Shown here one piece after another: positions 3,746 through 55,796 of a DNA stretch of 64,000 bases (position 1 is the first letter of the stretch; each line of letters starts with the position of its first letter). The position numbers and the translations under genes were made by a program. Under the pieces are notes generated by a model. It was given only the letters and a program-made list of their open reading frames with translations, had not been told where the DNA came from and did not search any database. The DNA is from an uncultured Candidatus Saccharibacteria bacterium (lineage in GTDB: Bacteria > Patescibacteriota > Minisyncoccia > Minisyncoccales > Staskawiczbacteraceae): positions 9,708 through 73,707 of the forward strand of contig CAYRHW010000004.1 in assembly GCA_964424305.1 (NCBI GenBank), given 5' to 3'.

Positions 3746-3751
3746 ATATTA

Positions 3752-4117
3752 TTATTTTTTATACTTTCCGTCGTGTCCTCCTAGACGAGTGTTTGTATGC
3801 TTCCCCTTTACTTTTCCTATGGGAAACCTTTTTTTATTATCTGCGATCGTCCATTTAACCGCTTCATCGATATCAACGCCCGCTGAATTTGCTAATAGGG
3901 ATAAAAACCAAGAGATGTCACCAATTGCGTCTTTAACTTCGTCTTTATTATCTACTAGTGCCCTATTCGCTTCTTCCCGACTTTTCAACCATTTCACTAT
4001 ATTTCTTAACTCCCCCACCTCTTCGACGATTCCCAACAACAAGTCCTTTGGATCAAAAAATTGGTTCCATTCTCTCTCGTCGCAAAACTTTTTTATTTCT
4101 CCTTGATATTGATTCAT
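3752..4117 (-). CDS. MazG-like nucleotide pyrophosphohydrolase
   Basis: Contains the EEVGELRNIVKW and DEV..AIGD helical EExxE/D pattern of the small MazG family. Confidence 0.6.
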   Translation of the reverse strand: MNQYQGEIKKFCDEREWNQFFDPKDLLLGIVEEVGELRNIVKWLKSREEANRALVDNKDEVKDAIGDISWFLSLLANSAGVDIDEAVKWTIADNKKRFPIGKVKGKHTNTRLGGHDGKYKK

Positions 4118-4125
4118 TGTTCAAA

Positions 4126-5127
4126 CTATATCTCTTTCCCAACAAACTCTGCAAATTCTGCCAATCTACACGAATAGCCCCATTCGTTATCGTACCAGCC
4201 AATCACTTTTATCATATTCCCAATAACCATTGTCATCAACGAGTCCACAACAGCAGAGTGCGAATCTCCAATGAAATCAGAAGAAACCAACGGCTCACTT
4301 ATCACCTGTAAAATTCCTTTTAAGTCTTTCTCGGCTGCCCGGAAAGCTGCATTAACTTCTTCTATGGTGACTGCTTTCTCCACCTCGACAACCAAGTCTA
4401 GATTTGAAACCGTCGGCGTTGGAACCCTTACCGATATACCATCTACTTTTCCTTTTAGATCTGGGATTACCTTCCCCAGCGCCTTAGCTGCTCCAGTTGA
4501 TGTCGGGATGATATTTATTGCCGCTGCCCTTGCGCGCCTTAAATCTTTGTGGGGAAGATCTAAAATCCGTTGATCATTTGTATAACTATGGATAGTCGTC
4601 ATAAACCCTTTAACTATCTTAAAGTTATCATTTAAAACCTTGGCAATGGGTGCTATACAATTTGTAGTGCATGAACCCATATCAACAATTTTATCGCTCT
4701 TTGGGTCGAACTTTTCTGCATTTACACCCAAAACATAGCTTGGTATGTCGCTATCCTTAGCTGGAGCTGAAATGATTACCTGTTTTGCTCCTGCCTTTAA
4801 ATGCTTTCCAGCCCCTTCCCTATCAGTGAATAAACCAGTGCATTCCAAAACAACGTCAACACCTAAATCAGCCCAGGGCAATTTTTCTGGATCTTTCTCT
4901 GAGAAAATTTTTATTTCTTTCTTCCCAACCGTTAAACTGTTCTCCGTAAAATCTACATCCTTCGCGTAACGCCCATAGGTAGAATCATATTTCAAAAGAT
5001 GCGCTAAAGTTTTTGTGTCGGTTAAATCATTAATCGCCACTATGTGCAAGTTTGGATGTTCGTCCAATATTCTACGGAAGGTATTCCGACCTATCCTGCC
5101 AAAACCATTTATAGCGATTTTTATCAT
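4126..5127 (-). CDS. gap: glyceraldehyde-3-phosphate dehydrogenase
   Basis: [10 protein letters not shown] and SCTTNC active-site motifs. Confidence 0.95.
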
Positions 5128-5133
5128 AATGAT

Positions 5134-5373
5134 TTACTCTTTAATTTTTAACAACTCGTTAATTTTACCTTTGTCGAAACCAATGATAAATTGTCCGTCA
5201 ATGTCTACAACTGGCACACTCATTTGCCCGGACTTTTCGATCATCTCATCTAGAAGTTTATCGTTGCTAGAAACATCTATATCTTCAAAAGATACATCGT
5301 GGTTTTTCATATACCCTTTGAGCGTTTGGCAATAAACACAACTTGGCGTTGAGAATATTCTTACCTTTTGCAT
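5134..5373 (-). CDS. glutaredoxin/NrdH-like small redoxin
   Basis: 79 aa with a CVYC redox motif near the N-terminus. Confidence 0.7.
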   Translation of the reverse strand: MQKVRIFSTPSCVYCQTLKGYMKNHDVSFEDIDVSSNDKLLDEMIEKSGQMSVPVVDIDGQFIIGFDKGKINELLKIKE

Positions 5374-5388
5374 ATTAGAAATAGTTAT

Positions 5389-6456
5389 TTATTGAGCTGG
5401 AGCACAATTCGCACCAGTGCCAGTACCTGTTCCAGATCCTGAAGTTCCGTCACCGTAGGTCTTTGAGAAACTAGTTGCTGCAGAATCCTTAGAAAGCTCG
5501 GTTGCGCAGTAGCCTCCTTGAGTTGTTGATCCACAACAGATAATTTGTTTCAAAGCATCTTCTGTCCTACCACCAAAAGAGAATTCGTCTGTCTTGTCTC
5601 CGTTGATAAACAATGTTGGAGACCCAGAAACACCCAATTGGTTCGCTAAATCAAAGTCACTTTGGGCAAATTTTAATCCTCTATTTGGATCTGTCATGCA
5701 GGCAGTAAGCTTTGCCTTATCAACCCCAGCCGATGTTAAACACTCAGTAGTCTTTCCTTCCTGCATATGGCATGAAAGATACGACCAATATTTGGTTGTC
5801 TCTTCCCTTAAACAAATCTGCCTTAGATTCTCCTGAGCTTCTTCATCTCCATGCATTGAAGTAATTTTTCCATTCTCAATGGTACCAAAATACCTTACCG
5901 TTATATTCTCTTTTGTGGCTGGAGCGTCCTTTATTAATTGGCTAAGGACTCTCTGCATTTGCAAGCCATAGGGACACTTACTTACGACGAAGGCCTCGAC
6001 GCTCGCCTTATCAACCTTTTTTACTGCATCGCAGGTTGTAACCGCAGTGGTATCGGTCGGTGTTCCGGTGTCACCCACTTTTGCCTCCATATCTATTGGG
6101 ACTCCTTGCATCTCTGGAAAAATGTATCTTCCTTCTTTGGTCACATAAATTGTATTATCTTGATCTTGCCCGTTATAGTTTACGGTGAATACGACCTTGT
6201 AAAGATCGCTAAATTTTTCTGCACTTTTGAATACTGCCTTAATTCCACTATCATTCACCTCTATGTATGTTTTACTAACGTATTCCACTGCTTTCCTGCC
6301 AACAGCTTCTGCCTGTGGGGTTTTAAATACGAAATAGTAAACAGAGAGACCAACCACACCCAAAACAACGACAATCACAATGATTGCTATAAAAAGATTA
6401 TTTTTGATATCTTTGCAAACCTTCGCACACGAATTTTTTATTGCGTCTAACATCAT
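5389..6456 (-). CDS. membrane-anchored thioredoxin-fold (DsbA-like) protein with Cys-rich region and GT-repeat C-terminus
   Basis: TM anchor, a VVSKCPYG thioredoxin-like site, many Cys residues, and a C-terminal GSGTGTGTG tail. Confidence 0.5.
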   Translation of the reverse strand: MMLDAIKNSCAKVCKDIKNNLFIAIIVIVVVLGVVGLSVYYFVFKTPQAEAVGRKAVEYVSKTYIEVNDSGIKAVFKSAEKFSDLYKVVFTVNYNGQDQDNTIYVTKEGRYIFPEMQGVPIDMEAKVGDTGTPTDTTAVTTCDAVKKVDKASVEAFVVSKCPYGLQMQRVLSQLIKDAPATKENITVRYFGTIENGKITSMHGDEEAQENLRQICLREETTKYWSYLSCHMQEGKTTECLTSAGVDKAKLTACMTDPNRGLKFAQSDFDLANQLGVSGSPTLFINGDKTDEFSFGGRTEDALKQIICCGSTTQGGYCATELSKDSAATSFSKTYGDGTSGSGTGTGTGANCAPAQ

Positions 6457-10568: not shown

Positions 10569-11666
10569 CTATAACGTCTCAACCAACGGAGGAAGTGGAT
10601 CAAATGGAATATTATCAAATATTACTTCTGTTGTTGGAAAACCAATAACCGCAAAACTTGAACTTCTGGCATCGCCAGGATTAATTACCCAAACGAGCTC
10701 CCCTTCTTCGAGGAAAGCTGTCCGGGTAAATCCGCACAGGATGAAACCAATCTCGGGATATTTTCGCAGAAGATCTTGAGAAAGAGCAGCTAAGCCGACT
10801 TCTGACTGCTCGGCAATTAGTGCCCCAAAATCCAATTGAACCAATAGTTTATGGCCCTCGATATCCACAACTGGGAATTCTAGGGGGATCCGCATCCAAT
10901 TTGACGGTAAAACACCCTTAAAGGCTTGATCCGCCCGCAAATTGAAATGCACCTGGAACTTCTCAAGCTCTGGCCGACCTATGTCAGATAACTTAATGTT
11001 TCCACAATGGATTAGAGTCTTAGCTCCATAGGCATCGAGGGCCGGAGCCAGCTTCTCCCAGAAATCTGGCCTAACTTCTGAAACATTCAAACTGTCGGAG
11101 ATAACTCCAATTCTGAACTGGTCTCTTGAAGTTTTAACCTTGGGAATGCGACTAAAGGTCACGCAGCTCGTTTCGGGGTTAACAATTGCATATTCATAAC
11201 CATCAAGAGAATTCCAAACTGCGCCAGGATTGACAAAACCCACCTGAATCCCTTGATCACAAATCTGGCGATGGGTATGCCCCGCGAACATCCAACTTAC
11301 TCCATCGTTCGTCGCCCTAATTTGGTTTATTTCATTTACCAATGTTTGTTCAGATCCCATTAGGTAAGTAAAAGACCTTTTATGGCCGACGTATATCTTC
11401 ACGCCACAAAAGACTCTGATTCTATCTCCGGGTCGTGTGAACACCCAGTTGGGTGGCGGACAGTTGAAATCCGGATTCCCGGCTTGCTCCTCAGTAAGTG
11501 CGCAAATAACTGGAAGGTTTAAGAATAACTTTGGATCAAGATGATTTCTGGCCTCGATGTCACCAGTGTGGACAATCCCAGTGACTCCAGCGTCCTTAAA
11601 CCGTTTCATAATATACGGGACAGCTGTGGCGTCCGTATGCGTATCTCCTATAATACCCCATAGCAT
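10569..11666 (-). CDS. two-domain metallophosphoesterase (YfcE-like domain plus degenerate repeat)
   Basis: GDTHTD, HTGDI and GHTH motifs occur in the N-terminal half; the C-terminal half repeats the fold with degraded motifs. Local G+C is elevated: I counted 31/60 at 11221-11280. Confidence 0.7.
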   Translation of the reverse strand: MLWGIIGDTHTDATAVPYIMKRFKDAGVTGIVHTGDIEARNHLDPKLFLNLPVICALTEEQAGNPDFNCPPPNWVFTRPGDRIRVFCGVKIYVGHKRSFTYLMGSEQTLVNEINQIRATNDGVSWMFAGHTHRQICDQGIQVGFVNPGAVWNSLDGYEYAIVNPETSCVTFSRIPKVKTSRDQFRIGVISDSLNVSEVRPDFWEKLAPALDAYGAKTLIHCGNIKLSDIGRPELEKFQVHFNLRADQAFKGVLPSNWMRIPLEFPVVDIEGHKLLVQLDFGALIAEQSEVGLAALSQDLLRKYPEIGFILCGFTRTAFLEEGELVWVINPGDARSSSFAVIGFPTTEVIFDNIPFDPLPPLVETL

Positions 11667-40952: not shown

Positions 40953-41023
40953 ATTTTTATTTATTAATTACCTGCCCTTCTTCCATGCTACCACCTTTGT
41001 AAGTCTAGTGTAAATATTGATGT

Positions 41024-41061
41024 AAAAAAAAGCGGGTAACAGCCGAGCTTGCCTGTTACCC
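41024..41061 (-). terminator. intrinsic terminator closing the cassette
   Basis: Perfect 9-bp stem GGGTAACAG/CTGTTACCC (41034-41061) followed by U8 on the minus strand. Confidence 0.75.
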
Positions 41062-41166
41062 ACCTGACTGAGAAGAGAGCAGATAGGGTCTGTTTCCCAC
41101 CTTCGTTCATCACGAAAGACTTGGGACCCATATCTGAGTGCTCCTCAATCCTCTGAAGATCGGTTG

Positions 41167-41310
41167 CTACGAGCCACGCTTCCTTTGCAACGGCTCGTTC
41201 GCCCGCATCATCGGGGCAATGACACTTGCTGCCAATGCCACGGCGATGAAGACGCCCAGAAAGGAAAAGAACCCAACATGTTCCGCCACGGTTCCGATGT
41301 GCTTAAGCAT
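41167..41310 (-). CDS. 47-aa single-TM peptide
   Basis: Not in the ORF track. AAGGAG lies 7 nt upstream of the ATG at 41310. Translates as MLKHIGTVAEHVGFFSFLGVFIAVALAASVIAPMMRANEPLQRKRGS. Confidence 0.5.
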   Translation of the reverse strand: MLKHIGTVAEHVGFFSFLGVFIAVALAASVIAPMMRANEPLQRKRGS

Positions 41311-41338
41311 AAGATTCTCCTTAATTTATGCCTAACTA

Positions 41339-41367
41339 TTAATACCATTTTTTACGGCACAAGTCAA
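41339..41367 (-). promoter_or_regulatory. promoter TTGACT-17nt-TATTAA (TGn extended -10)
   Basis: On the minus strand the -35 is at 41367-41362 and the -10 at 41344-41339. Confidence 0.55.
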
Positions 41368-41447
41368 CCCTTACTAATTAATAATAAAACAAGAAAAAAA
41401 CCCTCGAGAATGTCGACGGCCACCGAAATCTAATAAATTAATGTGCT

Positions 41448-41717
41448 TTAGGCTAGGCAACCCGTTTCCCCGAAATAGAGCTCAGCAATTACCATGGGCT
41501 TTACCCCCAACAACTCTGAAGTTCGCAAAACCCAAGTGGGAGGAAAAAGAATCTGGCCGTTTAGATACCTGGACATAGTGCCCTTATCAACACCGAAATG
41601 AGAAGCAAGCCAAGAAAGTTTGATATTAGCTGCCCGTCGCAGTTGTTTAATCTTATTCCCGACGTTTCTTCTTATATCAAACTCCGCACTTTTCCGACAC
41701 TGTGCCGAAAGACTCAT
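41448..41717 (-). CDS. XRE-family helix-turn-helix protein (89 aa)
   Basis: IKQLRRAANIKLSWLASHFGVDKGTMSRYLNGQ is an HTH_3-like segment. The start is chosen at Met35 of the listed ORF because the promoter at 41752-41780 lies inside the longer ORF. Confidence 0.65.
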   Translation of the reverse strand: MSLSAQCRKSAEFDIRRNVGNKIKQLRRAANIKLSWLASHFGVDKGTMSRYLNGQILFPPTWVLRTSELLGVKPMVIAELYFGETGCLA

Positions 41718-41751
41718 TTTTGTCCCTTTCAAAAGACAAGTTCCTATCAAG

Positions 41752-41780
41752 AGAATACCACTTAATGTAATTTTTGTCAA
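41752..41780 (-). promoter_or_regulatory. promoter TTGACA-17nt-TATTCT (TGn)
   Basis: On the minus strand the -35 is at 41780-41775 and the -10 at 41757-41752. Confidence 0.55.
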
Positions 41781-41794
41781 AACTTTTTTGTATA

Positions 41795-41824
41795 AGAAAA
41801 GCCCCGCACGCGATCGCACGGGGC
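41795..41824 (-). terminator. GC-rich hairpin terminator after the 394-aa gene
   Basis: GCCCCG...CGGGGC stem at 41801-41824 followed by UUUUCUU on the minus strand. Confidence 0.6.
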
Positions 41825-41848
41825 CTATTTGTGTACAGCAACTGGGAG

Positions 41849-43033
41849 CTACTCCGCAGGGGCGCCGGCTCCCACCAACTCGCTGGTGGCGACTGCCCTG
41901 GCGTTGGAGGAGGCCGCGGTATCGGGCCGCCTGCGCAGACGCCGGGTCGTCTTGCCGCGGTTGATATGCTCCAACATCAGGATGTGGAGCAGCTCGCGGG
42001 ACTTGCCGGAGGACGAGGCCAACCTCGAGACTTCGGGGTCAGCGACCGGGAACTGAGCGATCTTCCTCAGGAGGTCCGCCTCGATGAAGAGACGACTCCC
42101 CCGCCAGAAGTCCTCATACTGGCTGAGGATGGTGGCGAGGCACCAGAGGAAGGTTTGACGCAAGTACGCCGCACCCTCCTTGAACGCCACGCGCTTGATG
42201 CCCCAGGCCGAGTCCACCAGATCGAAAAACGTCTTGACGTTGTCGCGCATGATGGTCCGGCCGGCGGTCACGAGGATCTTCTGCAGGCCACGGGCCAGAT
42301 CCGTCAACTGGTTGGACCGGCCAGGCCCCATGTGGGAATGCAGGGCTCCGACCGTCTTCATCAGCGTGAGTGCGTTGATCAGGTCCTGACGCCGCATCCT
42401 CTGGGCCCAGCAGATCTTCTCGCACATGACGAACTCCTTGTCGTGCGCGAGGGCGAAGAGCATCTGGACCACGTCGACATCCAGGCGCATATTGCGCAGG
42501 ATGATGTTGGAGCTGACCTTCATCCGCTCCTGGTTGAGGATGCGGAACCGCTCGCGCTCCCAGGGCTCCGTGGTGTTCAAGTGGACCAGGGCGCCGAGAC
42601 GCGGCTGTCCACCCTTGAGGCGAAACTGCTTGGCCGCGGTGATCCGCTGCAGTCCGTCGACGATGAACGTCCGATCCTGCAGGAAGTAGAAGCCGTCCCG
42701 GAAGACCGTCTTGCTGCCGCGCATCCCCAACTCCACGTCGGGCATGCGATCGCCGGCCTCCATGGCTTTCACCAGGGCCGAGATCTTGGCGAGAGGCTCA
42801 ACCTCCCGCTGGTAGGTGTCGGTCTCCAGCTGGTCCAGCGATACCGGGTCAATGATGCCCCGGATCACGATGGAATCGCTGCTACTCGTTCCACCTTCGT
42901 CGAGTGCTCCGTTGATAATTTTGATACTCACGATGAACTCCTTCCTGTCCGTGGCCCTATAAAGATAGAAGCCTTGGACAACGATGCTTCTGATAATGGT
43001 TTGCTTGTCTCGGTATATTCGGACTTGCGCCAC
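41849..43033 (-). CDS. ParB/sulfiredoxin-fold, DGQHR/DUF262-like domain protein (394 aa)
   Basis: FIVDGLQRITAAKQF resembles the DGQHR (DndB) / DGQQR (DUF262) signature and is preceded by a QREV..L.KI..LV.AM segment. The remainder is helical with an Arg-rich tail. Confidence 0.55.
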   Translation of the reverse strand: MAQVRIYRDKQTIIRSIVVQGFYLYRATDRKEFIVSIKIINGALDEGGTSSSDSIVIRGIIDPVSLDQLETDTYQREVEPLAKISALVKAMEAGDRMPDVELGMRGSKTVFRDGFYFLQDRTFIVDGLQRITAAKQFRLKGGQPRLGALVHLNTTEPWERERFRILNQERMKVSSNIILRNMRLDVDVVQMLFALAHDKEFVMCEKICWAQRMRRQDLINALTLMKTVGALHSHMGPGRSNQLTDLARGLQKILVTAGRTIMRDNVKTFFDLVDSAWGIKRVAFKEGAAYLRQTFLWCLATILSQYEDFWRGSRLFIEADLLRKIAQFPVADPEVSRLASSSGKSRELLHILMLEHINRGKTTRRLRRRPDTAASSNARAVATSELVGAGAPAE

Positions 43034-43163
43034 TACCAGAATTAATTCAGCAAGGCAATTTGGTTATGTTGGACCGCTCCAATTCTCCCAGAACACGATT
43101 CCGGGAAGGATTGCGCCAACGCCTACTGAATAGTTGCTGTACAGGTTGTGAATGTGCATTGGT

Positions 43164-43192
43164 ATATTAACACTAACGACAGATTATGTCAA
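43164..43192 (-). promoter_or_regulatory. promoter TTGACA-17nt-TAATAT
   Basis: On the minus strand the -35 is at 43192-43187 and the -10 at 43169-43164. Confidence 0.6.
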
Positions 43193-43219
43193 TATTTTTG
43201 CACATGATATTCCTGTAAA

Positions 43220-43246
43220 GAAAAAACCCAAGTTAGCACCTGGGTC
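43220..43246 (-). terminator. intrinsic terminator after the 393-aa gene
   Basis: ACCCAGGugcuaaCUUGGGU followed by UUUUUU on the minus strand. Confidence 0.65.
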
Positions 43247-43263
43247 CTCATGTTCTAAGGAAC

Positions 43264-44445
43264 TTATTTCTTAAGAAGAACGGTATCAGCTCCCCTGGGG
43301 AGCTCACCTGGCTTGAGCAAATGGTCATTGACGATTGTGGGCCTGGTCCAGACAGTTTTCAGAGCATTGGGATCGTGCCCAAGTCCCTTTGGCCGGCCCC
43401 AGAAGCCACACCTGAAGTGTGGGACCTTCTGCCTGTAACCCGTCCTCATAACCTCATCCGTATGGTCAACAAAGATTTTCCGCTCACCAGATGTAAGCTT
43501 GAATTGTGTTGAAACATGACAGATATGACTTGCGTCGGTCACCCCCTCGTATCTGTCACCAGACAAATTTCGATGGACTGGTGTCCAAAGCGAAACATGA
43601 GGGCTTGCCGGAGGCAAGGATTTGAGATACAGACACATGCCAACAATAATTCGGATTGCTTTATCACCAAATTCTCCATCGGTCCGGTTCATGGCGTCAA
43701 CAACTTCCGTAACCGGCGTACTCTTCATCTTCCCGTTAACATTGAAGGACGATCCGGTGCACCAGGAAAAATCTTCCAGATGCCGATCAATCAAAACCTT
43801 TGCTCGTTTTGCTTTTCCCCTTCCTAAATACTTCTGAATTTCCCGTCGCTGGGTAGCAGTTAGGAATTTAAATCGGTCATTCTCGCCCGTTATAATCCAG
43901 AAAGTAACCCTATTGGGCTCTTGCGTGTTGGTGACAAGCATTGTGTCAAAGGCCACTTCAACGCCCTCTGGCCTCAATATTCCGGAGATTGGCCGAGCCA
44001 AGGAAATGAGAAAACAGTTAAAGGGGAATTTTACATCTTGGAGGGTTATCCCCTCAAGAGAGGTTGCATCTAGAAGAAGCTGTAGGTCCTCGCTGATATG
44101 GAAAACTCTCCGGGAATCCCGAGTCCACAGTGCAGTCACAAGTGGAATCATGTCCAGAAAATTCTCACGATTAATGATTGATCCCTTAGATTGGGGTCGA
44201 ACCGGAAACCTGAAGGGATCCATCGTTTGATAAATTTCCAAATCAGTCATATTCGGACGAATGGTTAAAATCGTTGGTCTTAGGTTCGACCAATTGGCCA
44301 CCGCCAAATCGGAACGGAAGATAACAGGGCGCCTGAGCATTCTATCCACTTGATTGTGTGCGCCCTGCAAAAAAGCAATATCCTCATAAAGCCGAATCGC
44401 CTGCTCCAAACGCAGAGCAGCGTTTCTTTCTTCAACGCGTTCCAT
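43264..44445 (-). CDS. 393-aa protein of unknown function
   Basis: Long ORF in the GC-enriched cassette with its own promoter and terminator. I recognise no domain. Confidence 0.6.
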   Translation of the reverse strand: MERVEERNAALRLEQAIRLYEDIAFLQGAHNQVDRMLRRPVIFRSDLAVANWSNLRPTILTIRPNMTDLEIYQTMDPFRFPVRPQSKGSIINRENFLDMIPLVTALWTRDSRRVFHISEDLQLLLDATSLEGITLQDVKFPFNCFLISLARPISGILRPEGVEVAFDTMLVTNTQEPNRVTFWIITGENDRFKFLTATQRREIQKYLGRGKAKRAKVLIDRHLEDFSWCTGSSFNVNGKMKSTPVTEVVDAMNRTDGEFGDKAIRIIVGMCLYLKSLPPASPHVSLWTPVHRNLSGDRYEGVTDASHICHVSTQFKLTSGERKIFVDHTDEVMRTGYRQKVPHFRCGFWGRPKGLGHDPNALKTVWTRPTIVNDHLLKPGELPRGADTVLLKK

Positions 44446-44482
44446 ATAGACTCCTTCCTATGTCAAACAGCAATTTCGATTG

Positions 44483-44510
44483 ATTATACCATAAGTTTCC
44501 TTTAGGTCAA
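44483..44510 (-). promoter_or_regulatory. promoter TTGACC-16nt-TATAAT (TGn) bracketed by inverted repeat TTTCGATT/AATCGAAA
   Basis: The -35 is at 44510-44505 and the -10 at 44488-44483. The inverted-repeat arms lie at 44474-44481 and 44512-44519. Confidence 0.6.
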
Positions 44511-44522
44511 GAATCGAAACGC

Positions 44523-44551
44523 AAAAAAAGAAGGCACAAGCTTCTGTGCCT
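44523..44551 (-). terminator. intrinsic terminator after the 96-aa gene
   Basis: AGGCACAgaagcuUGUGCCU followed by UCUUUUUUU on the minus strand. Confidence 0.65.
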
Positions 44552-44566
44552 CCATCCAGTGTGGGA

Positions 44567-44857
44567 CTAGAAGTCCCTCGGGCCACCGACACAGAACCTT
44601 ACGGTTCCGGTTCGGCTCTTAGTCTGGTACTCGATGGAGAAACTGCTCTCTCCTTCGGCACCGGGCTCGTAACCCGTGACAAGCCACCAACCTCGCTTGC
44701 CAGGCTTGACGGAAATGCTCCCGATGTACGCCTTCATGCGGTCGCGCTCATCGTCGGGGCGAATCCACCAAAACTCGGCGATCGAGTGCGTCTTCAGCGA
44801 ATGGAAGAGCGCGTCGATGTCAGGGCCGTCTACAACTGGTAAGTCGTGCGTCGCCAT
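44567..44857 (-). CDS. 96-aa protein of unknown function
   Basis: GC-rich ORF. AAGGAG lies 7 nt upstream of the ATG. It has its own promoter and terminator. Confidence 0.55.
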   Translation of the reverse strand: MATHDLPVVDGPDIDALFHSLKTHSIAEFWWIRPDDERDRMKAYIGSISVKPGKRGWWLVTGYEPGAEGESSFSIEYQTKSRTGTVRFCVGGPRDF

Positions 44858-44974
44858 GGTCGTTCTCCTTGCTGAGGGGGTGTGAAGCTACGCGCCTCAC
44901 ATTTGGCAATCATTTTTCATGCCTTCGTACACTCAGAGAGAAAGACCACAACCTAATCAAATAATACTGATCAT

Positions 44975-45003
44975 AATATATCATAATGGGAAAATCTTGT
45001 CAA
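44975..45003 (-). promoter_or_regulatory. promoter TTGACA-17nt-TATATT
   Basis: On the minus strand the -35 is at 45003-44998 and the -10 at 44980-44975. Confidence 0.6.
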
Positions 45004-45013
45004 TGATAGAAAC

Positions 45014-45040
45014 CAAAACAAAAGCCGCCCGAAGGCGGCT
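45014..45040 (-). terminator. intrinsic terminator after rpsI
   Basis: AGCCGCCuucgGGCGGCU followed by a U-rich tract. Confidence 0.7.
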
Positions 45041-45052
45041 TCCTTAAAATCT

Positions 45053-50701: not shown

Positions 50702-52546
50702 CTATTTTAATACTGCTTTTATCCTTCTGACGCCAGAGGAAGAGCTTTCCTCTTTTTGAATTTTAAATATTCCTAAAACCCCTGTCCTTTCTACGTGTGG
50801 CCCACCACAAATTTCCTTGCTTGCATCCCCTACACTATATACTTTAACATTTTCTCCGTATTTTGACTCGAAGACACCCATGGCTCCGGCTTGTTTCGCT
50901 TGCTCCAGGGACATCTCCTGCATTGTTACGGGTAGGTCTTTCTCTATTATACCATTAACGAAAACTTCTACTTGATTGATCTGCTCCGGAGTTAACTTAT
51001 CTGGATGAGAGAAATCAAACCTCAATCGCTCAACCGTGATATTGCTTCCTTTCTGGAAAACATGATCCCCTAAAACCTTCCTTAAACCAGCGAGCATAAG
51101 ATGGGCCGCTGTGTGAAGTTTCGTAGTTTCAAGACTTGCATCGGCTAATCCCCCCTTGAACATTCCGGCTGAAGCAGTACGAGATAGATCCTGATGGGCC
51201 TGTAATTCCTTCATAAATTCTTCAATATCTACCACCAAACCTTTTTCTCTCGCCAACTCTTCTGTTATTTCAATTGGGAAACCATAACTTTGGTAAAGAT
51301 TGAAGGCATCTTTACCTGATATCGTCTCCATCTTTTCAAACTCTTTTAATCCCCTCTCCAATGTTAAACTAAACCTTTCTTCCTCCTTCGATAATTCATT
51401 GGCAACAAAATTAATATTCTTTTTTAATTCTGGATAAACATGCTTATAGTCCTCGGCCACAATCTTGGCAATTTCCTTTGTCCAATCCTTTTCCTTAATT
51501 CCCAAATTACCGCCGAATCGAATTGCGCGCCTTATCAACCTTCTAACAATGTACCCCGGGCCAACATTACTTGGAGTTATTCCCCTATTATCTCCCATTA
51601 TGAAAGTTGCTGCTTTTAAGTGGTCGGCAACCACTTCGAAAGCCTTACTATTTTCTTTGTACTTGATTCCAGATAACCTCTCGATTTGTTTGATGATGTT
51701 TATAAACAAGTCTGTCTCAAAAACATTATCCAATCCCTCGGTCACCGTTGTTATTCTTTCTAACCCTCCGCCAAAATCTACATTGAACTGTTCCAACTTT
51801 TCAAATCCACCTTCCGTACGTTTATACTCAATGAACACGCTGTTCCCAACTTCTAAAAATCTGCCACAATCACAATTTACATGACAGGGTTGATCTGCCC
51901 ATTGAGAGTTTTCATGTTTTTTTAAATCAGCGCCTAGATCGTAGAACACTTCACTATCTGGACCACCAATTTCTCCGACCGGCATTCTGCTTGGTTCGCC
52001 AGATCGAGACCACCAATTTTTCCTTGCCGGATAATAGAATATTCTGCCGTCTTGCATACCATCTCTTTCGGCAAAATCCACATCTTTAGCTTCAATTTTG
52101 TAATCTTTAAAAATCTCTTTCCAAATATTAACCGATTCTGTGTCCTTTGGAACTCCGATTGCCTCATCACCACGGAATACACTGACATAGAATCTCTTTG
52201 GGTCTATTTTTAATTCCTTCAACAACAAATCGGAAATCCAAGGTAATTGTTCTTTTTTGAAATAGTCTCCCAGAGACCAATTTCCAAGCATTTCAAAAAA
52301 AGTTGTATGTCTTCCGTCACCCACCTCCTCAATATCTTCTGCTCTGAATGATTTTTGAGAATTCGTTAGCCTTGTTCCCTCTGGATGCTTCTCTCCCAAC
52401 AGATATGGGACCAATGGCTGCATTCCGGAGCTAATAAACAATGTGGAGGAATCATTTTCTGGAAGTAAAGAAGCGCTTGGGATGATGGCATGCCCCTGCT
52501 TTTTGTAGTAATTCAGATATTTTTCTCTAATCTTCGAAGAAATCAT
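50702..52546 (-). CDS. alaS: alanine--tRNA ligase, short form ending after the editing domain (no C-Ala domain)
   Basis: FFEMLGNWSLGDYFK, HTAAHLM (editing HxxxH), and the protein ends at GVRRIKAVLK. Confidence 0.85.
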   Translation of the reverse strand: MISSKIREKYLNYYKKQGHAIIPSASLLPENDSSTLFISSGMQPLVPYLLGEKHPEGTRLTNSQKSFRAEDIEEVGDGRHTTFFEMLGNWSLGDYFKKEQLPWISDLLLKELKIDPKRFYVSVFRGDEAIGVPKDTESVNIWKEIFKDYKIEAKDVDFAERDGMQDGRIFYYPARKNWWSRSGEPSRMPVGEIGGPDSEVFYDLGADLKKHENSQWADQPCHVNCDCGRFLEVGNSVFIEYKRTEGGFEKLEQFNVDFGGGLERITTVTEGLDNVFETDLFINIIKQIERLSGIKYKENSKAFEVVADHLKAATFIMGDNRGITPSNVGPGYIVRRLIRRAIRFGGNLGIKEKDWTKEIAKIVAEDYKHVYPELKKNINFVANELSKEEERFSLTLERGLKEFEKMETISGKDAFNLYQSYGFPIEITEELAREKGLVVDIEEFMKELQAHQDLSRTASAGMFKGGLADASLETTKLHTAAHLMLAGLRKVLGDHVFQKGSNITVERLRFDFSHPDKLTPEQINQVEVFVNGIIEKDLPVTMQEMSLEQAKQAGAMGVFESKYGENVKVYSVGDASKEICGGPHVERTGVLGIFKIQKEESSSSGVRRIKAVLK

Positions 52547-52583
52547 TTAATAATTTTACATTATAAAATAATTTTATACAAAT

Positions 52584-52620
52584 AAAAAAAGAGACCAGAG
52601 CTATGCGAGCTCACGGTCCC
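52584..52620 (-). terminator. intrinsic terminator immediately upstream of alaS
   Basis: Minus strand reads GGGACCguGAGCU-cgcau-AGCUCuGGUCUC followed by U7. The G-U pair exists only on the minus strand. Confidence 0.65.
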
Positions 52621-52978
52621 TGGTGGGGCTATAGAACCTTAGTGGTTCCAAGCATGGAAAAATAAATGGGGCTGACGGGTGGGTTTAGACGAAATTGGCT
52701 ATCCGCAGGCAGTGGTGCCTGTGATACGGGAGAAAGACCCTGCAGGGATTTCCCGTGGAGGCATATCGCCCCTCTTACAGATGCCAGACTGGCGGTTTTG
52801 TTCCGCCGATAATGTCTTGGGGTTGATTCCCCTACCCAATTAAGCAAAGGTCCTAGGAGCCTTCGCTTTGTAGCGCCCTGGTTTAGAAGGCCTAACGCTT
52901 TGGCGTTCGTTAAGCTTCCAGCACCCCTACGGGTGCTGAGCGACTCCCGTCAGTTGCCCAGTTTTTCAGTTTGTGCTG
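52584..52978 (-). ncRNA. ~390-nt GC-enriched structured RNA (unassigned: alaS leader/attenuator or stand-alone ncRNA)
   Basis: Bounded by the promoter at 52985-53013 and the terminator at 52584-52620. Contains many perfect hairpins (for example 52919-52938) and a long-range pairing of 52672-52679 with 52946-52953. No credible ORF. Confidence 0.5.
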
Positions 52979-52984
52979 ATTATT

Positions 52985-53013
52985 AATTTAACAAAAAAGC
53001 AAATCAGTGTCAA
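52985..53013 (-). promoter_or_regulatory. promoter TTGACA-17nt-TAAATT
   Basis: On the minus strand the -35 is at 53013-53008 and the -10 at 52990-52985, just after the tpiA stop. Confidence 0.6.
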
Positions 53014-53034
53014 GGAGGATAAAATTACTACTAA

Positions 53035-53772
53035 TTATTCTGCTGACCGAACTATTTTAACAAAATCATCTGCCCTTAAAGATGCTCCGCCAACAAGCAA
53101 CCCATTGGCTCCCGCTTCTTTAATATATGCTCCGGAGTTTTCTCCATTCACGCTCCCGCCATAAAGGATTCTGGTTTTATCTGCCGTCTCTCTATTGTAT
53201 AAATTGTTAATCGTTTGTTTTATAAACAACAAAGAAGTTGTTGTTTCTTGGACCGAGCAATTATTTCCTGTCCCAATTGCCCAAATGGGCTCATAGGCGA
53301 TAGAAATATGTTTCATATCATCCTTAGAAATATTTCTCAGGTCGTTCTCTAGTTGAGATTTCAGAATTAAAGTCTTTTTGCTTGCGTCTCTCTCTTCTGC
53401 TGTTTCTCCAATACATAGGATAACATTTAAACCCACCCTAATGGCCAGCTTAATCTTCTTATTTATCAGCTCATCGGTTTCGCTGAAATATTTCCTTCTT
53501 TCGGAGTGACCAATTATTACATAATCTAATCCAGCACTCTTAATCATAGAAGCGGATATTTCTCCAGTAAAAGCACCTTTTTCTTCGGAACAACAATTTT
53601 GAGCACCCAATGCTAAGCCTTTAAATAATGGGGAATAAATAAGTGGGGGGCAAAGAACAACCTCTGCGTTCTTTGCTGATTTAATCCCAGCTTTCACTTT
53701 TTTGAATAATTCCTCTGCCTCTCTTTTTGTTTGTGGGTTTAATTTCCAATTGGCGACAATTAATGATTTCAT
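53035..53772 (-). CDS. tpiA: triose-phosphate isomerase
   Basis: IVANWKLN, IGHSERR and AYEPIWAIGTG motifs. Confidence 0.95.
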   Translation of the reverse strand: MKSLIVANWKLNPQTKREAEELFKKVKAGIKSAKNAEVVLCPPLIYSPLFKGLALGAQNCCSEEKGAFTGEISASMIKSAGLDYVIIGHSERRKYFSETDELINKKIKLAIRVGLNVILCIGETAEERDASKKTLILKSQLENDLRNISKDDMKHISIAYEPIWAIGTGNNCSVQETTTSLLFIKQTINNLYNRETADKTRILYGGSVNGENSGAYIKEAGANGLLVGGASLRADDFVKIVRSAE

Positions 53773-53849
53773 TATTTTAAATTAATTTGTATTCTCTGAT
53801 TTTAACATAAATATCTTTTAAATAAAGATTGGGTGATGTAACTTTTTGT

Positions 53850-53897
53850 AAAAAAAGAAGGGCGACTCGAGTTCCTCCAGAAACTCTCGAATCGCCC
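53850..53897 (-). terminator. strong intrinsic terminator upstream of tpiA
   Basis: 12-bp stem GGGCGAUUCGAG/CUCGAGUCGCCC (the U-G wobble exists only on the minus strand) followed by UUCUUUUUUU. Confidence 0.7.
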
Positions 53898-54433
53898 TAG
53901 GGCAACAAAGTGGTGGCATAATGCTTATCTCCAAGCCTGATTCACCTACACGGGGTAGGGGTTACAAGCAGTGAAGAGGCACTTTCACCTTTACCGCGCC
54001 ATCTCAGGCACGCCTTTGTCGCATGACAATGGGGGTGGTGGGTGGATTCCCAGTTGATGTTTGTGTAGGTCTTCAACCAATACCTAGGATCCAGAGAGCG
54101 CTCCCCGGGTCCACAATGCCGTCAGATGAAGAGCCACTTGTGCGTGACTCCGCCGGATATAGTTCCCTGAACAAGGGTCTGAACACCGACCTAGCATTGC
54201 CAAATTTTTCTGATGGAAACCCACGAGCAAAGAGTCGCGAACCCTCTACTCAACCACCACCACCCAGAAAACTGATAACTAGTCGTATGTGTATAAAGCT
54301 TCTCTGCCATAAGAGGCAGGATTTCATTTCTTCCAATTGAGACAGCTTCTATCCTTCGGTTCTCCCGCGAACGAGATTCCTAATATGCGAAATAATTATC
54401 AATTTTCTAGGTGGTTATTAAATTTTCAATCGT
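53850..54433 (-). ncRNA. ~580-nt GC-enriched structured RNA (unassigned)
   Basis: Bounded by the promoter at 54440-54468 and the terminator at 53850-53897. The GGUGG tract at 54031-54045 is complementary to the CCACC tract at 54254-54265. Several hairpins have wobble pairs that favour the minus strand. No credible ORF. Confidence 0.45.
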
Positions 54434-54439
54434 GCTGGT

Positions 54440-54468
54440 ATGATAGCATATTACCAGAACCCTGTCAA
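54440..54468 (-). promoter_or_regulatory. promoter TTGACA-17nt-TATCAT
   Basis: On the minus strand the -35 is at 54468-54463 and the -10 at 54445-54440. Confidence 0.55.
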
Positions 54469-54516
54469 GGGCTAAACCCATCCAAGGACCCCCGCAGACG
54501 CTACTGTCCAAATAAT

Positions 54517-54541
54517 GAAAAACCTCGCAGTTCATGCGAGG
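54517..54541 (-). terminator. intrinsic terminator after the 129-aa HTH gene
   Basis: CCUCGCAugaacUGCGAGG followed by UUUUU on the minus strand. Confidence 0.65.
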
Positions 54542-54568
54542 CCTATTGGAAACCCTATATTCTAGCCA

Positions 54569-54958
54569 CTACTTAAGCGGCTGCTTCTTCTTGATGATAA
54601 CCGTCTTGCGTCTTTTCCCCTTCTTTGTGAAATATTCCGGATGCATTTCTCTAATCAATCCGTCCATTAAACGAACCCCTTCATTCTTCTTTCTTGCACC
54701 AGATTCGTCTGATCCCAGTGCCTCTCCGAGCAATATGGTGGACGGTATTTGTAGCACACCCGACAATGCGTGGAGATGGACCATTGAAAGCGATCCTTTT
54801 CCCCTCAATATCTTCTTGATGAAATCGACGCTGAGGTCAAGCGAGCCAGCGATGACCCGAAGATCATCCAACTTATATTTGGAAATTACACATCTCAAGA
54901 GAGCTTTCGAGCTCTTCGAACCCATCACAAATATCTTTGCAGCTTTTCTCTTTGCCAT
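54569..54958 (-). CDS. small HTH-type DNA-binding protein with basic termini (129 aa)
   Basis: LRVIAGSLDLSVDFIKKILRGKGSLSMVHLHALSGVLQIP is a helix-turn-helix-like segment. Local G+C is elevated (32/60 at 54721-54780). Confidence 0.5.
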   Translation of the reverse strand: MAKRKAAKIFVMGSKSSKALLRCVISKYKLDDLRVIAGSLDLSVDFIKKILRGKGSLSMVHLHALSGVLQIPSTILLGEALGSDESGARKKNEGVRLMDGLIREMHPEYFTKKGKRRKTVIIKKKQPLK

Positions 54959-55052
54959 GGCCGTTTCCTTTCTCGGTTGGCTAGAGGTGTTTATAAAAGA
55001 TCATCTTAAATACAGCAGATGCAAGATAACACAAAAAGCTGTCTCCGTCAAT

Positions 55053-55796
55053 TTATCCCTCCCCAGCGACCCCTTCACGACCATCCCCTCTTTTGCCGAA
55101 GAATACTTCATCCATTATTTCGGGGGATTTTAACTTCTGAGCATCGGCGTAAAAAACAATTTCACCAGATCGCATCACATAACCTCGGTTGCAAATATCT
55201 AAAACGCTTTTAATATTATGTTCTACTATTAAAATAGTAACGTTAAATTTTTGGTTTAATTCTTTTATCTTCCTAAATATTTCTTTAACTAACTTCGGAG
55301 ACAATCCCAAAGACGGTTCGTCAAGTAGCAATACCTCTGGGTCCTGCATCATAGCCCTTCCCAGGGCCAGCATCTGCTGCTGCCCACCGCTTAAAGTATA
55401 TGCGTACTTATTTTGTTTCTCCCGTAATATTGGGAATTGGCAATATACTTGCTCCAAGTTTTTACTCACCACCTCCCGCCCCTTATTTATTATACTTATT
55501 TCTAAATTCTCTCTCACTGTCATATCGTTGAAATTTATTCTACCCTGGGGGAGATAATAAATACCTATACCGGTAAGTTGATGGGGCTTTAAGCCAACGA
55601 TGTTTTTCCCTTCAAATAAAATCTCACCCGATTTAATTTCGGTTAAGTTAAAGATAGATTTTAATAACGTTGACTTGCCAGCTCCGTTAGGTCCCATCAA
55701 AGCAACAACTTCTCCGGCCATAATTTCCATATTGACGCCCCTTAGCACTGGCAGATCTTCATACCCCGCATTAAGATTTTTAATTTGAAGCATCAT
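55053..55796 (-). CDS. livF: branched-chain amino acid ABC transporter ATP-binding protein (LivF-like)
   Basis: GPNGAGKSTLLK and LSGGQQQML motifs. It has an atypical GC-rich C-terminal tail, KRGDGREGVAGEG. Confidence 0.8.
   Translation of the reverse strand: MMLQIKNLNAGYEDLPVLRGVNMEIMAGEVVALMGPNGAGKSTLLKSIFNLTEIKSGEILFEGKNIVGLKPHQLTGIGIYYLPQGRINFNDMTVRENLEISIINKGREVVSKNLEQVYCQFPILREKQNKYAYTLSGGQQQMLALGRAMMQDPEVLLLDEPSLGLSPKLVKEIFRKIKELNQKFNVTILIVEHNIKSVLDICNRGYVMRSGEIVFYADAQKLKSPEIMDEVFFGKRGDGREGVAGEG

Follow-up and report, generated by a model that had tools for sequence, protein, structure and literature searches.

Bacterial structured RNAs of more than 400 nt are rare besides rRNA, RNase P RNA and tmRNA. 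Fst, TisB and other type I toxins generally have a transmembrane stretch at the N-terminus and then a polar or acidic tail. Dual-function RNAs (see PMC5013986 and PMC8501984) are stand-alone genes whose long transcripts carry many hairpins, that of RNAIII having ~514 nt. The present work concerns an RNA gene, referred to as RNA A, in a 64-kb stretch (64,000 nt) of the Patescibacteria contig CAYRHW010000004.1; "the window" designates this whole stretch, and the coordinates of RNA features are those of its minus strand. RNA A is the locus 53850-54433 (-) and, as read from its signals, is a transcription unit of its own of ~580 nt, directly upstream of tpiA.

RNA A has in common with RNAIII/hld of Staphylococcus aureus, SR1/SR1P of Bacillus subtilis and SgrS/SgrT of Escherichia coli that it has its own promoter and terminator and is long and rich in hairpins; it also has a tiny peptide, in some lineages only, while the scaffold is kept. 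It differs from them in phylum, in having no sequence or structure homology to them (no Rfam match), in its hypervariable central domain and in being found in a handful of genomes. We propose, with moderate confidence, that the window copy is a functional non-coding RNA, regulatory or serving as a scaffold, and the local member of a new family. Judged from sequence comparison, this family is small, previously undescribed and made of structured RNAs from a sub-clade of Candidatus (Ca.) Staskawiczbacteria (Patescibacteria).

The initial annotation of this segment had claimed an independently transcribed, highly structured RNA of about 580 nt devoid of open reading frames (ORFs), and each of these attributes holds. 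The promoter is close to consensus (Table 1), and transcription would start near 54433. On the minus strand within the RNA (~54433-53850), no ORF exceeds 48 amino acids (aa) and none is hydrophobic. The 591-nt RNA folds with a minimum free energy (MFE) of -216.8 kcal/mol (z = -6.03), and 0 of 100 shuffled sequences are equally stable. A strong terminator is also present at the 3' end, but it is compound, with an outer stem of 10 bp and an inner stem of 7 bp, and not the simple 12-bp stem that had been described. A 141.5-kb ENA contig and two further samples contain the same sequence, with 100% identity across the 2.5 kb examined.

The antisense strand of the 591-nt RNA gives z = -2.04, and the tpiA and livF coding sequences, taken as controls, give z ~ -0.9; the RNA has structure well beyond chance. 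When the domains are considered separately (200 dinucleotide shuffles each), the sense z score is -4.8 for D1, -3.6 for D2 (antisense -1.3) and -4.05 for D3 (antisense -0.66). D2 and D3 reach significance on the sense strand only, which makes the fold strand-specific. The sense fold has 31 G.U pairs, versus 14 in the antisense fold. The elevated G+C content that had been noticed initially is real (0.52-0.55 in 53900-54200 versus a mean of 0.40 for the whole window).

Table 1. Features of the region around RNA A, with their positions in the 64-kb window
Feature	Position	Strand	Description or basis
RNA A promoter	54440..54468	-	TTGACA-17-TATCAT, TG before the -10 hexamer; 11/12 consensus positions
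5' domain D1	54259..54415	-	closed by the 23-bp helix P1 (54415-54393/54281-54259); MFE helices; model R1, 164 bits
Hairpin of ~31 nt, window copy only	54356..54386	-	UUCG-type loop, between P1 and P2; helix 54376-54372/54367-54363
Most conserved block, AAGCUGUCUCAAUUGGAAGAAAUGAAAUCC	54319..54348	-	5' strand of P2 and purine-rich loop; then hairpin P3 (54319-54304)
Central domain D2	54034..54258	-	225 nt, G+C 0.53, 6-7 hairpins, no peptide ORF
3' domain D3	53902..54022	-	elongated hairpin of ~120 nt, nested helices, side hairpin with UGAGA loop
Compound intrinsic terminator	53849..53898	-	outer 10-bp stem 53898-53889/53868-53859, inner 7-bp stem, then U-run UUCUUUUUUU
Extended -10 element of tpiA, TGTTAAAAT	53799..53807	-	read off the sequence
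129-aa ORF, probable divergent XRE-type HTH (helix-turn-helix) gene	54569..54958	-	codon score, G+C by codon position, homologs
Terminator-like hairpin after the 129-aa ORF	54520..54544	-	hairpin prediction
Last 13 codons of livF, G+C-rich extension KRGDGREGVAGEG	55053..55091	-	codon score -0.72; translation
RNA B, ORF-free structured RNA between tpiA and alaS	52590-52985	-	G+C 0.54, own promoter and terminator

Two long-range helices, GGUGGU/ACCACC and GUGGGUUUCCA/UGGGAAUCCAC, enclose the domain D2. The complementarity between a GGUGG and a CCACC tract had been pointed out from the start: the two tracts (54031-54044/54251-54264, 14 nt, 86% complementary) pair in the MFE fold, and the two hairpins containing GUUCGCG are present too. 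The alternative pairing with 53910-53917, which had been put forward as well, is possible in the window, but it is not conserved in the homolog L113 described below. The apex of D3 carries the module UAAnn-CCUrC-loop-GyAGG-UrA, at 53964-53942.

With TIM proteins of closer relatives, taken from metagenome assemblies, as anchors, a search that follows the suggestion of looking for homologs in other Patescibacteria uncovered three independent units, L084, L108 and L113 (Ca. Staskawiczbacteria). All are at the same site, with the same orientation as tpiA and directly upstream of it. The TIM proteins of these loci are 80%, 79% and 68% identical to that of the window, respectively, while the nearest named genomes, which are Ca. 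Staskawiczbacteria, have 55-60% TIM identity. The three homologs have the same type of promoter (L084 5326-5354, L108 755-783, L113 2065-2093). No match was obtained when both intergenic regions flanking tpiA in the window were compared by nhmmer with +/-10 kb around tpiA in 80 GTDB species, and the closest GTDB relatives (TIM 55-60%) have no comparable G+C-rich gaps, except for the one that holds the RNase P RNA in L005. A metagenome scan with the 20-mer TCAATTGGAAGAAATGAAAT returned 18 matches, all of them by chance and in coding regions, and two scans of viral contigs gave chance matches only.

The covariance model of the 5' domain (R1) scores 164 bits in the window, 161 in L084, 176 in L108 and 43 in L113 (E = 6e-9), and it has no other match in ~0.5 Mb of Patescibacteria loci or elsewhere in the 64-kb window. 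In the helix P1, 96.7% of the cells are paired over the four sequences, and both sides are changed in 7 of the 23 pairs; the covariation score of P1 is reached by 0 of 500 shuffles, and it becomes about five-fold lower when the partners are slid by 1-3 columns. The conserved 30-nt block of D1 is identical in L084 (30/30) and differs at three positions in L108 (27/30). The hairpin P3 is common to the window, L084 and L108, with one compensatory pair. L113 does not have the conserved block, its P1 enclosing just 31 A+U-rich nt. The 31-nt hairpin of the window corresponds to a gap in both L084 and L108 (alignment A3).

Downstream, D3 has the same order of nested helices and the same apex module in the window, L113 and L084, and in 1.5 Mb of loci, searched on both strands, this apex motif is seen in no sequence other than the RNA A homologs. 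The side hairpin with the UGAGA loop is found in the window and L113 only, with completely different stems. The terminator stem GGGCG...CGCCC and the U-run that follows it are homologous in the window, L084 and L113. Over these three sequences, 11 of the 29 pair positions of D3 plus terminator are compensatory; the alignment was made by hand, the register given by MAFFT being too poor for a second covariance model. As for D2, L113 has an equivalent domain directly after P1, closed by ACAGUUGGUGGG/CUCACCAACUGU, and in L084 a long-range helix closes an equivalent domain that starts a few nt after P1; no long-range closure of this region is predicted in L108. The L113 RNA has ~420 nt, no ORF and z = -6.4. 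Outside D1, a nucleotide Smith-Waterman comparison of the window with L084 finds only the terminator above the range of the shuffles. The sequence comparisons indicate that the architecture (P1 domain, D2, D3, terminator) is conserved although the sequences are largely unalignable. The fold of P1, D3 and the terminator is kept through compensatory substitutions, as in structured non-coding RNAs, over four sequences only.

These observations also bear on whether the feature is an element that acts at the DNA level, either an acquired G+C-rich island or an inverted-repeat element (a miniature inverted-repeat transposable element, MITE, or an invertible segment), whose helices would be terminal or recombination repeats. 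The G+C content is indeed above the genome average, the tail of livF is atypical, the long-range helices are inverted repeats of 12-18 bp, the distribution is patchy, and ACAGUUGGUrGG-like repeats recur in neighbouring units of L113, L109 and L086 (see below). However, D2 and D3 are significant on the sense strand only, where the G.U pairs are also more numerous, and the sense strand, as defined by the promoter, folds better in 10 of 10 related units. Many short internal helices covary, beyond the terminal repeats, and the copies are unlike each other internally, which is not the case of MITEs. In addition, D1 occurs only once in the 64-kb window, genes for recombinases or transposases are lacking nearby, and the segment has a single orientation in three assemblies. 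We consider an element of this kind very unlikely.

The location of the unit directly upstream of tpiA, on the same strand in four of four genomes, with a terminator that ends ~75 nt 5' of the start codon, would also fit a cis-acting leader of tpiA that functions by conditional read-through of the terminator (53898-53859). In this case one would not expect tpiA to have an extended -10 element of its own downstream of the terminator, which it has; matching elements (TGGTAAAAT or TGCTAAAAT) are conserved upstream of tpiA in L084, L108 and L113. Because of this element, RNA A is considered as a unit separate from tpiA. Moreover, the close relatives L086, L088 and L114 have a tpiA gene without any such leader, a length of 580 nt and three domains are far above those of known leaders, and we found neither a riboswitch, T-box or other cis-regulatory match in Rfam nor a conserved antiterminator alternative pairing. 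A leader function is improbable.

Searching the whole window with Rfam 15 at the gathering threshold returns only four tRNAs, and nothing relevant appears at E <= 10 in 52400-55200 on both strands; the homologs in L084, L108 and L113 have no Rfam family match either. The Rfam scan recommended in the initial annotation hence assigns no family to the RNA. ARAGORN detects the same number of tRNAs (four) in the window and no tmRNA. It might be argued that RNA A is a very divergent housekeeping RNA (RNase P, tmRNA, 6S or SRP) that escapes the Rfam models: the RNase P RNA of the Staskawiczbacteria locus L005 barely passes the Rfam cut-off (104.5 bits versus 100), so that the RNase P RNAs of this lineage are near the detection limit, and it adjoins tpiA on the opposite strand. 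Like bacterial RNase P RNA (type A), RNA A is structured, G+C-rich, several hundred nt long and beside tpiA, and its motif GGUAAAGGUGAAAG resembles the CR-II region. But the L005 RNA, which served as a positive control, is detected, whereas RNA A and its relatives give no match even at E <= 10; with respect to the models RF00010/RF00011, the conserved regions of RNase P RNA are absent or out of order, which bears out the initial reservation about this assignment. RNA A is also not universal among close relatives, and this absence, the patchiness and the presence of a peptide in two genomes are a poor fit to an essential RNA. We regard a housekeeping RNA as extremely improbable. In L005 (RIFOXYB1_FULL_38_37), the RNase P RNA (10770-11165, -) is directly downstream of tpiA.

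The placement of RNA A in the class of OLE, ROOL and GOLLD, which its size had suggested, has to be abandoned: the models of OLE, ROOL, GOLLD and raiA match neither the window RNA nor the homologs in the relatives, including at E <= 10 for the window, and the distribution is very narrow and patchy. What RNA A shares with these RNAs is a length of the ~600-nt class, many helices and the appearance of a G+C-rich island in an A+T-rich genome; on the other hand, it has far fewer invariant nucleotides and a very narrow range, some of its members are coding, and it has no associated protein genes such as oapA.

Two of the homologs encode a peptide. In the D2-equivalent domain of L084, AAGGAG is followed, after 7 nt, by the ATG of a 33-aa ORF (MQFIIGLVAFLIALGLVFAPLMAEELPTGFVRK), and a gene caller predicts this ORF on L085. 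L108 has a homologous 41-aa ORF after the same 5' domain, then a simple terminator, and no D3. The two peptides are 52% identical, with the common motif APLxAE..P.G.V, and each ORF has a Shine-Dalgarno site. Both are hydrophobic; their transmembrane stretch is in the N-terminal part, and the tail is polar or acidic. They belong to no Pfam or NCBIfam family, and a profile search finds only the L085 copy. The mRNAs that encode them are structured (z = -4.4), and the start codon or the Shine-Dalgarno site is inside a local hairpin. An ORF of the type I toxin kind is present in L084 and L108, and it is absent from the window. The best tblastn hit for a remnant of the peptide in the window has 16.9 bits, which is noise level. 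That D2 of the window could be a frameshifted remnant of the peptide ORF is ruled out by this result and by the Smith-Waterman comparison, in which only the terminator stands out outside D1. The family thus has three forms: the window and L113 have the RNA only, L084 has the RNA plus peptide, and L108 has the 5' domain plus peptide. The claim that this is a large non-coding RNA is right for the window copy, which has no ORF, but not for the family as a whole, considering the peptide in two relatives.

An antisense promoter-like site, TTGAGA-17-[G/A]ATAAT, is conserved inside D1 in L084 (5415-5387) and L108 (852-824), with no terminator. Its two hexamers coincide with the two blocks that are best conserved in the 5' domain, and in the window they are separated by the insertion of the 31-nt hairpin (54356-54386).

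The resemblance to the mRNAs of type I toxins (hok/sok, fst RNAI/RNAII, tisB/istR, aapA/isoA) is found in the relatives, whose 33-41-aa peptides have one hydrophobic helix and a polar tail. The RNA A family also has a long structured leader, long-range pairing and a start region in a hairpin, its occurrence is likewise patchy, and L084 and L108 have the candidate antisense promoter inside the leader. In contrast to these mRNAs, the window RNA has no toxin ORF, the transcript is 2-3 times longer than is typical, D3 is conserved independently of the ORF, and the peptides are in no toxin family of Pfam or NCBIfam.

Could the window RNA then be the functionless relic of an mRNA for a small type I toxin-like peptide, whose toxin ORF and antisense promoter have been lost? 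The ancestor would have encoded a peptide behind a long structured leader, under the control of an antisense RNA. The peptides of L084 and L108, 33-41 aa long and preceded by AAGGAG, their structured mRNAs with the start codon or Shine-Dalgarno site in a local hairpin, and the antisense promoter, present in D1 of these two loci and split in the window by the 31-nt hairpin, can all be accommodated in this way, as can the patchy distribution and the existence of other small membrane-peptide genes at the site in L109 and L113. In a relic, however, one would not expect compensated helices, a terminator and a near-perfect promoter to persist across the window, L084 and L113, nor would a relic hold the strongest fold of the family (z = -6.0). 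The most distant member, L113, is also ORF-less and yet fully structured, and no trace of an ORF is found in the window by Smith-Waterman or tblastn. The antitoxin transcript and the toxicity are, besides, putative, and the antisense promoter-like site has no terminator. We therefore hold decay from a toxin gene to be unlikely.

We favor instead a functional RNA in which the scaffold would be the part under selection and the peptide an optional cargo. We argue that the scaffold is selected since its promoter, terminator and compensated helices persist beyond alignable divergence and since the fold is strand-specific. Because the peptide ORF is optional, the family resembles dual-function RNAs or type I toxin transcripts: it may behave like one or the other, the window copy acting purely as an RNA. 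By analogy, the most likely role of the latter, for which it is a candidate, would be that of a regulatory RNA that acts in trans or binds a protein through its conserved unpaired segments.

Several points weigh against this proposal. The family has just four independent members, which makes the covariation statistics weak; for P1 the alignment was fitted to the model, for D3 it was made by hand; D2 cannot be aligned between members; L113 does not have the most conserved block of D1 and L108 does not have D3. No RNA A is found at the same site in relatives whose TIM proteins are 78%, 76%, 71%, 69% and 68% identical to that of the window, and such a patchy distribution is as compatible with an accessory or selfish element as with a regulator. 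Last, the regulatory role is proposed by analogy and is not a result.

Other small genes are also found at the intergenic site between map and tpiA. L109 has a 49-aa ORF for a small membrane protein (344-629), and L113 has a 64-aa ORF (1845-2039) and a 109-aa ORF for a protein with a transmembrane segment and a zinc ribbon (2597-2926). Some of these genes of L109 and L113 for small membrane proteins have their own promoters and terminators. This suggests that the site is a hot spot for small accessory genes. As RNA A is absent from the site in several relatives and as other small genes are found there in L109 and L113, we consider the RNA unit as accessory too.

In the window, RNA A is preceded by the 129-aa ORF. 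The local genes are all on the minus strand, in the order map, two binding-protein genes, proS, livHMGF, the 129-aa ORF, RNA A, tpiA, a second ORF-free stretch and alaS, and they are part of a region with ribosomal-protein genes, secY, adk and map. The codon score of the 129-aa ORF is 0.09, compared to -0.10 to 0.24 for small real genes and a maximum of 0.04 off frame. Its G+C content at codon positions 1/2/3 is 0.46/0.36/0.53, versus 0.47/0.36/0.37 for the genes of the genome; by these measures it has a coding signature with third positions that look foreign. The region is unstructured (z about -0.09 to 0.1). The high G+C content of the RNA goes with structure, and that of the HTH gene sits at third codon positions.

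The 129-aa ORF itself matches no Pfam or NCBIfam family, and a word-index search returns only the ORF. A full HMMER search finds the protein P0123 (42% identity, E = 1e-17) and the more remote P0124, P0125 and P0126 (E = 3e-5 to 4e-4), which pass Pfam HTH_3 with 28, 48.8 and 45.5 bits, respectively (cut-off 23), and with which the ORF aligns across the helix-turn-helix region. It is thus probably a divergent XRE-type gene; the small HTH-like gene announced initially is real, and it is followed by a terminator-like hairpin. The AlphaFold model of the protein is a bundle of 5-6 helices, of low confidence (mean predicted local distance difference test score, pLDDT, 61). The codon score, the G+C content by codon position, the unstructured region and the homologs rule out that this ORF is spurious.

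The initial annotation had considered the G+C-rich segment of 1.2 kb as one insertion, and had asked whether the HTH gene and the RNA always occur together. They do not: L084, L108 and L113 have the RNA with no HTH gene next to it, which means that the segment consists of two separate units. The XRE-like gene is independent of the RNA and was probably acquired. There is a weak hint that an HTH gene and an RNA A-like unit are adjacent in a second genome, that of L111. This contig, which encodes P0123, is only 511 nt long; it extends 24 nt past the terminator of the gene, where its end (CTTGACAGG / CTTGACAGGTCTT) resembles the -35 region of the RNA A promoter in the window (CTTGACAGGGTTCT).

A perfect 6-bp inverted repeat, CTGGTA-N11-TACCAG (54435-54457, -), spans the -10 element of the RNA A promoter. 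It is seen in the window copy only, the sole copy with an XRE-like gene upstream, and it could be an operator, or be due to chance. In L116-L119, which are the contexts of P0124 and P0126, a 72-77-aa ORF is directly upstream of the HTH homolog, and overlaps it in L119; this arrangement is like that of toxin-antitoxin pairs. Upstream of the ORF pair, L116 and L118 have a gene for a branched-chain amino-acid permease (BPD_transp_2), reminiscent of the liv operon ahead of the 129-aa ORF in the window.

The end of livF, which had been described as atypical, is indeed so: the codon score of its last 13 codons is far below those of real genes (-0.02 to 0.33). We assume that LivF usually ends near an FFG motif. 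This tail is probably read-through into foreign sequence, and it would fit the loss of the original stop codon at a junction with acquired DNA.

The second ORF-free stretch, between tpiA and alaS, also encodes a predicted structured RNA, RNA B (MFE -156.4 kcal/mol, z = -5.95). It has a promoter of the form TTGACA-17-TAAATT with a TG (53013-52985) and a terminator at 52612-52598; it has no Rfam match and is not a tmRNA according to ARAGORN. Positional homologs with a common promoter and 3' part are found in L084 (6745-7372), L086 (3043-3452) and L109 (1368-1828). In L113, the 1.8-kb gap between tpiA and alaS (3750-5490) and the region 2100-2520 contain at least three more units without ORFs, delimited by terminators; promoters are predicted for two of them. 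The L113 units have domains of 120-330 nt with closing helices of 12-18 bp, whose 5' strand is ACAGUUGGUrGG-like.

In most of these units a 5' hairpin is at once followed by a domain-closing helix of 12-18 bp with an ACAGUUGGUrGG-like strand, and the same junction after the 5' hairpin is seen in RNA A of L113 and L108 and in RNA B of L109 and L086. BLAST detects no significant similarity between RNA A and RNA B units beyond the U-runs of the terminators. The relation between A and B rests on the architecture and a short junction motif, so that a superfamily can be considered as a hypothesis only. It may be, although we find it doubtful, that RNA A, RNA B and the units of L113, at least three in number, form a superfamily of large modular RNAs that is specific to Patescibacteria. 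Its units would then be defined, just as tentatively, by a strong promoter, a 5' hairpin and at least one G+C-rich domain of 120-330 nt enclosed by a helix. This bracketing helix could be a processing site (of the RNase III type) or a protein-binding site. That some units of such a superfamily carry a small membrane peptide as cargo is a speculative extension, to which we give little weight at present.

If true, this hypothesis would amount to a new class of large structured RNAs that fill kilobases of a genome of ~1 Mb. We found no description of such RNAs in the literature on Patescibacteria or the Candidate Phyla Radiation. The very small genomes of Patescibacteria leave little space for non-essential sequence, and here ~1 kb around tpiA is spent on two strongly promoted, strongly folded RNAs without a known family, nearly 3 kb in the case of L113. 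A single scaffold that exists in three states (RNA only, RNA with a peptide, mostly peptide) could serve as a model for the gain or loss of coding capacity in toxin mRNAs or in dual-function RNAs. At present the practical value is limited, and the distribution is very narrow.

Elsewhere in the window, the region 41000-45050 is another G+C-rich island (57-71%, versus the window mean of 40%), in which there is no meaningful Rfam match. It includes a 1.2-kb stretch with 71% G+C and long ORFs on both strands (41751-42975), an AcrVA2-like gene (43264-44445, -) and an ORF of 96 aa (~44565-44855, -) that is G+C-rich and has a Shine-Dalgarno site.

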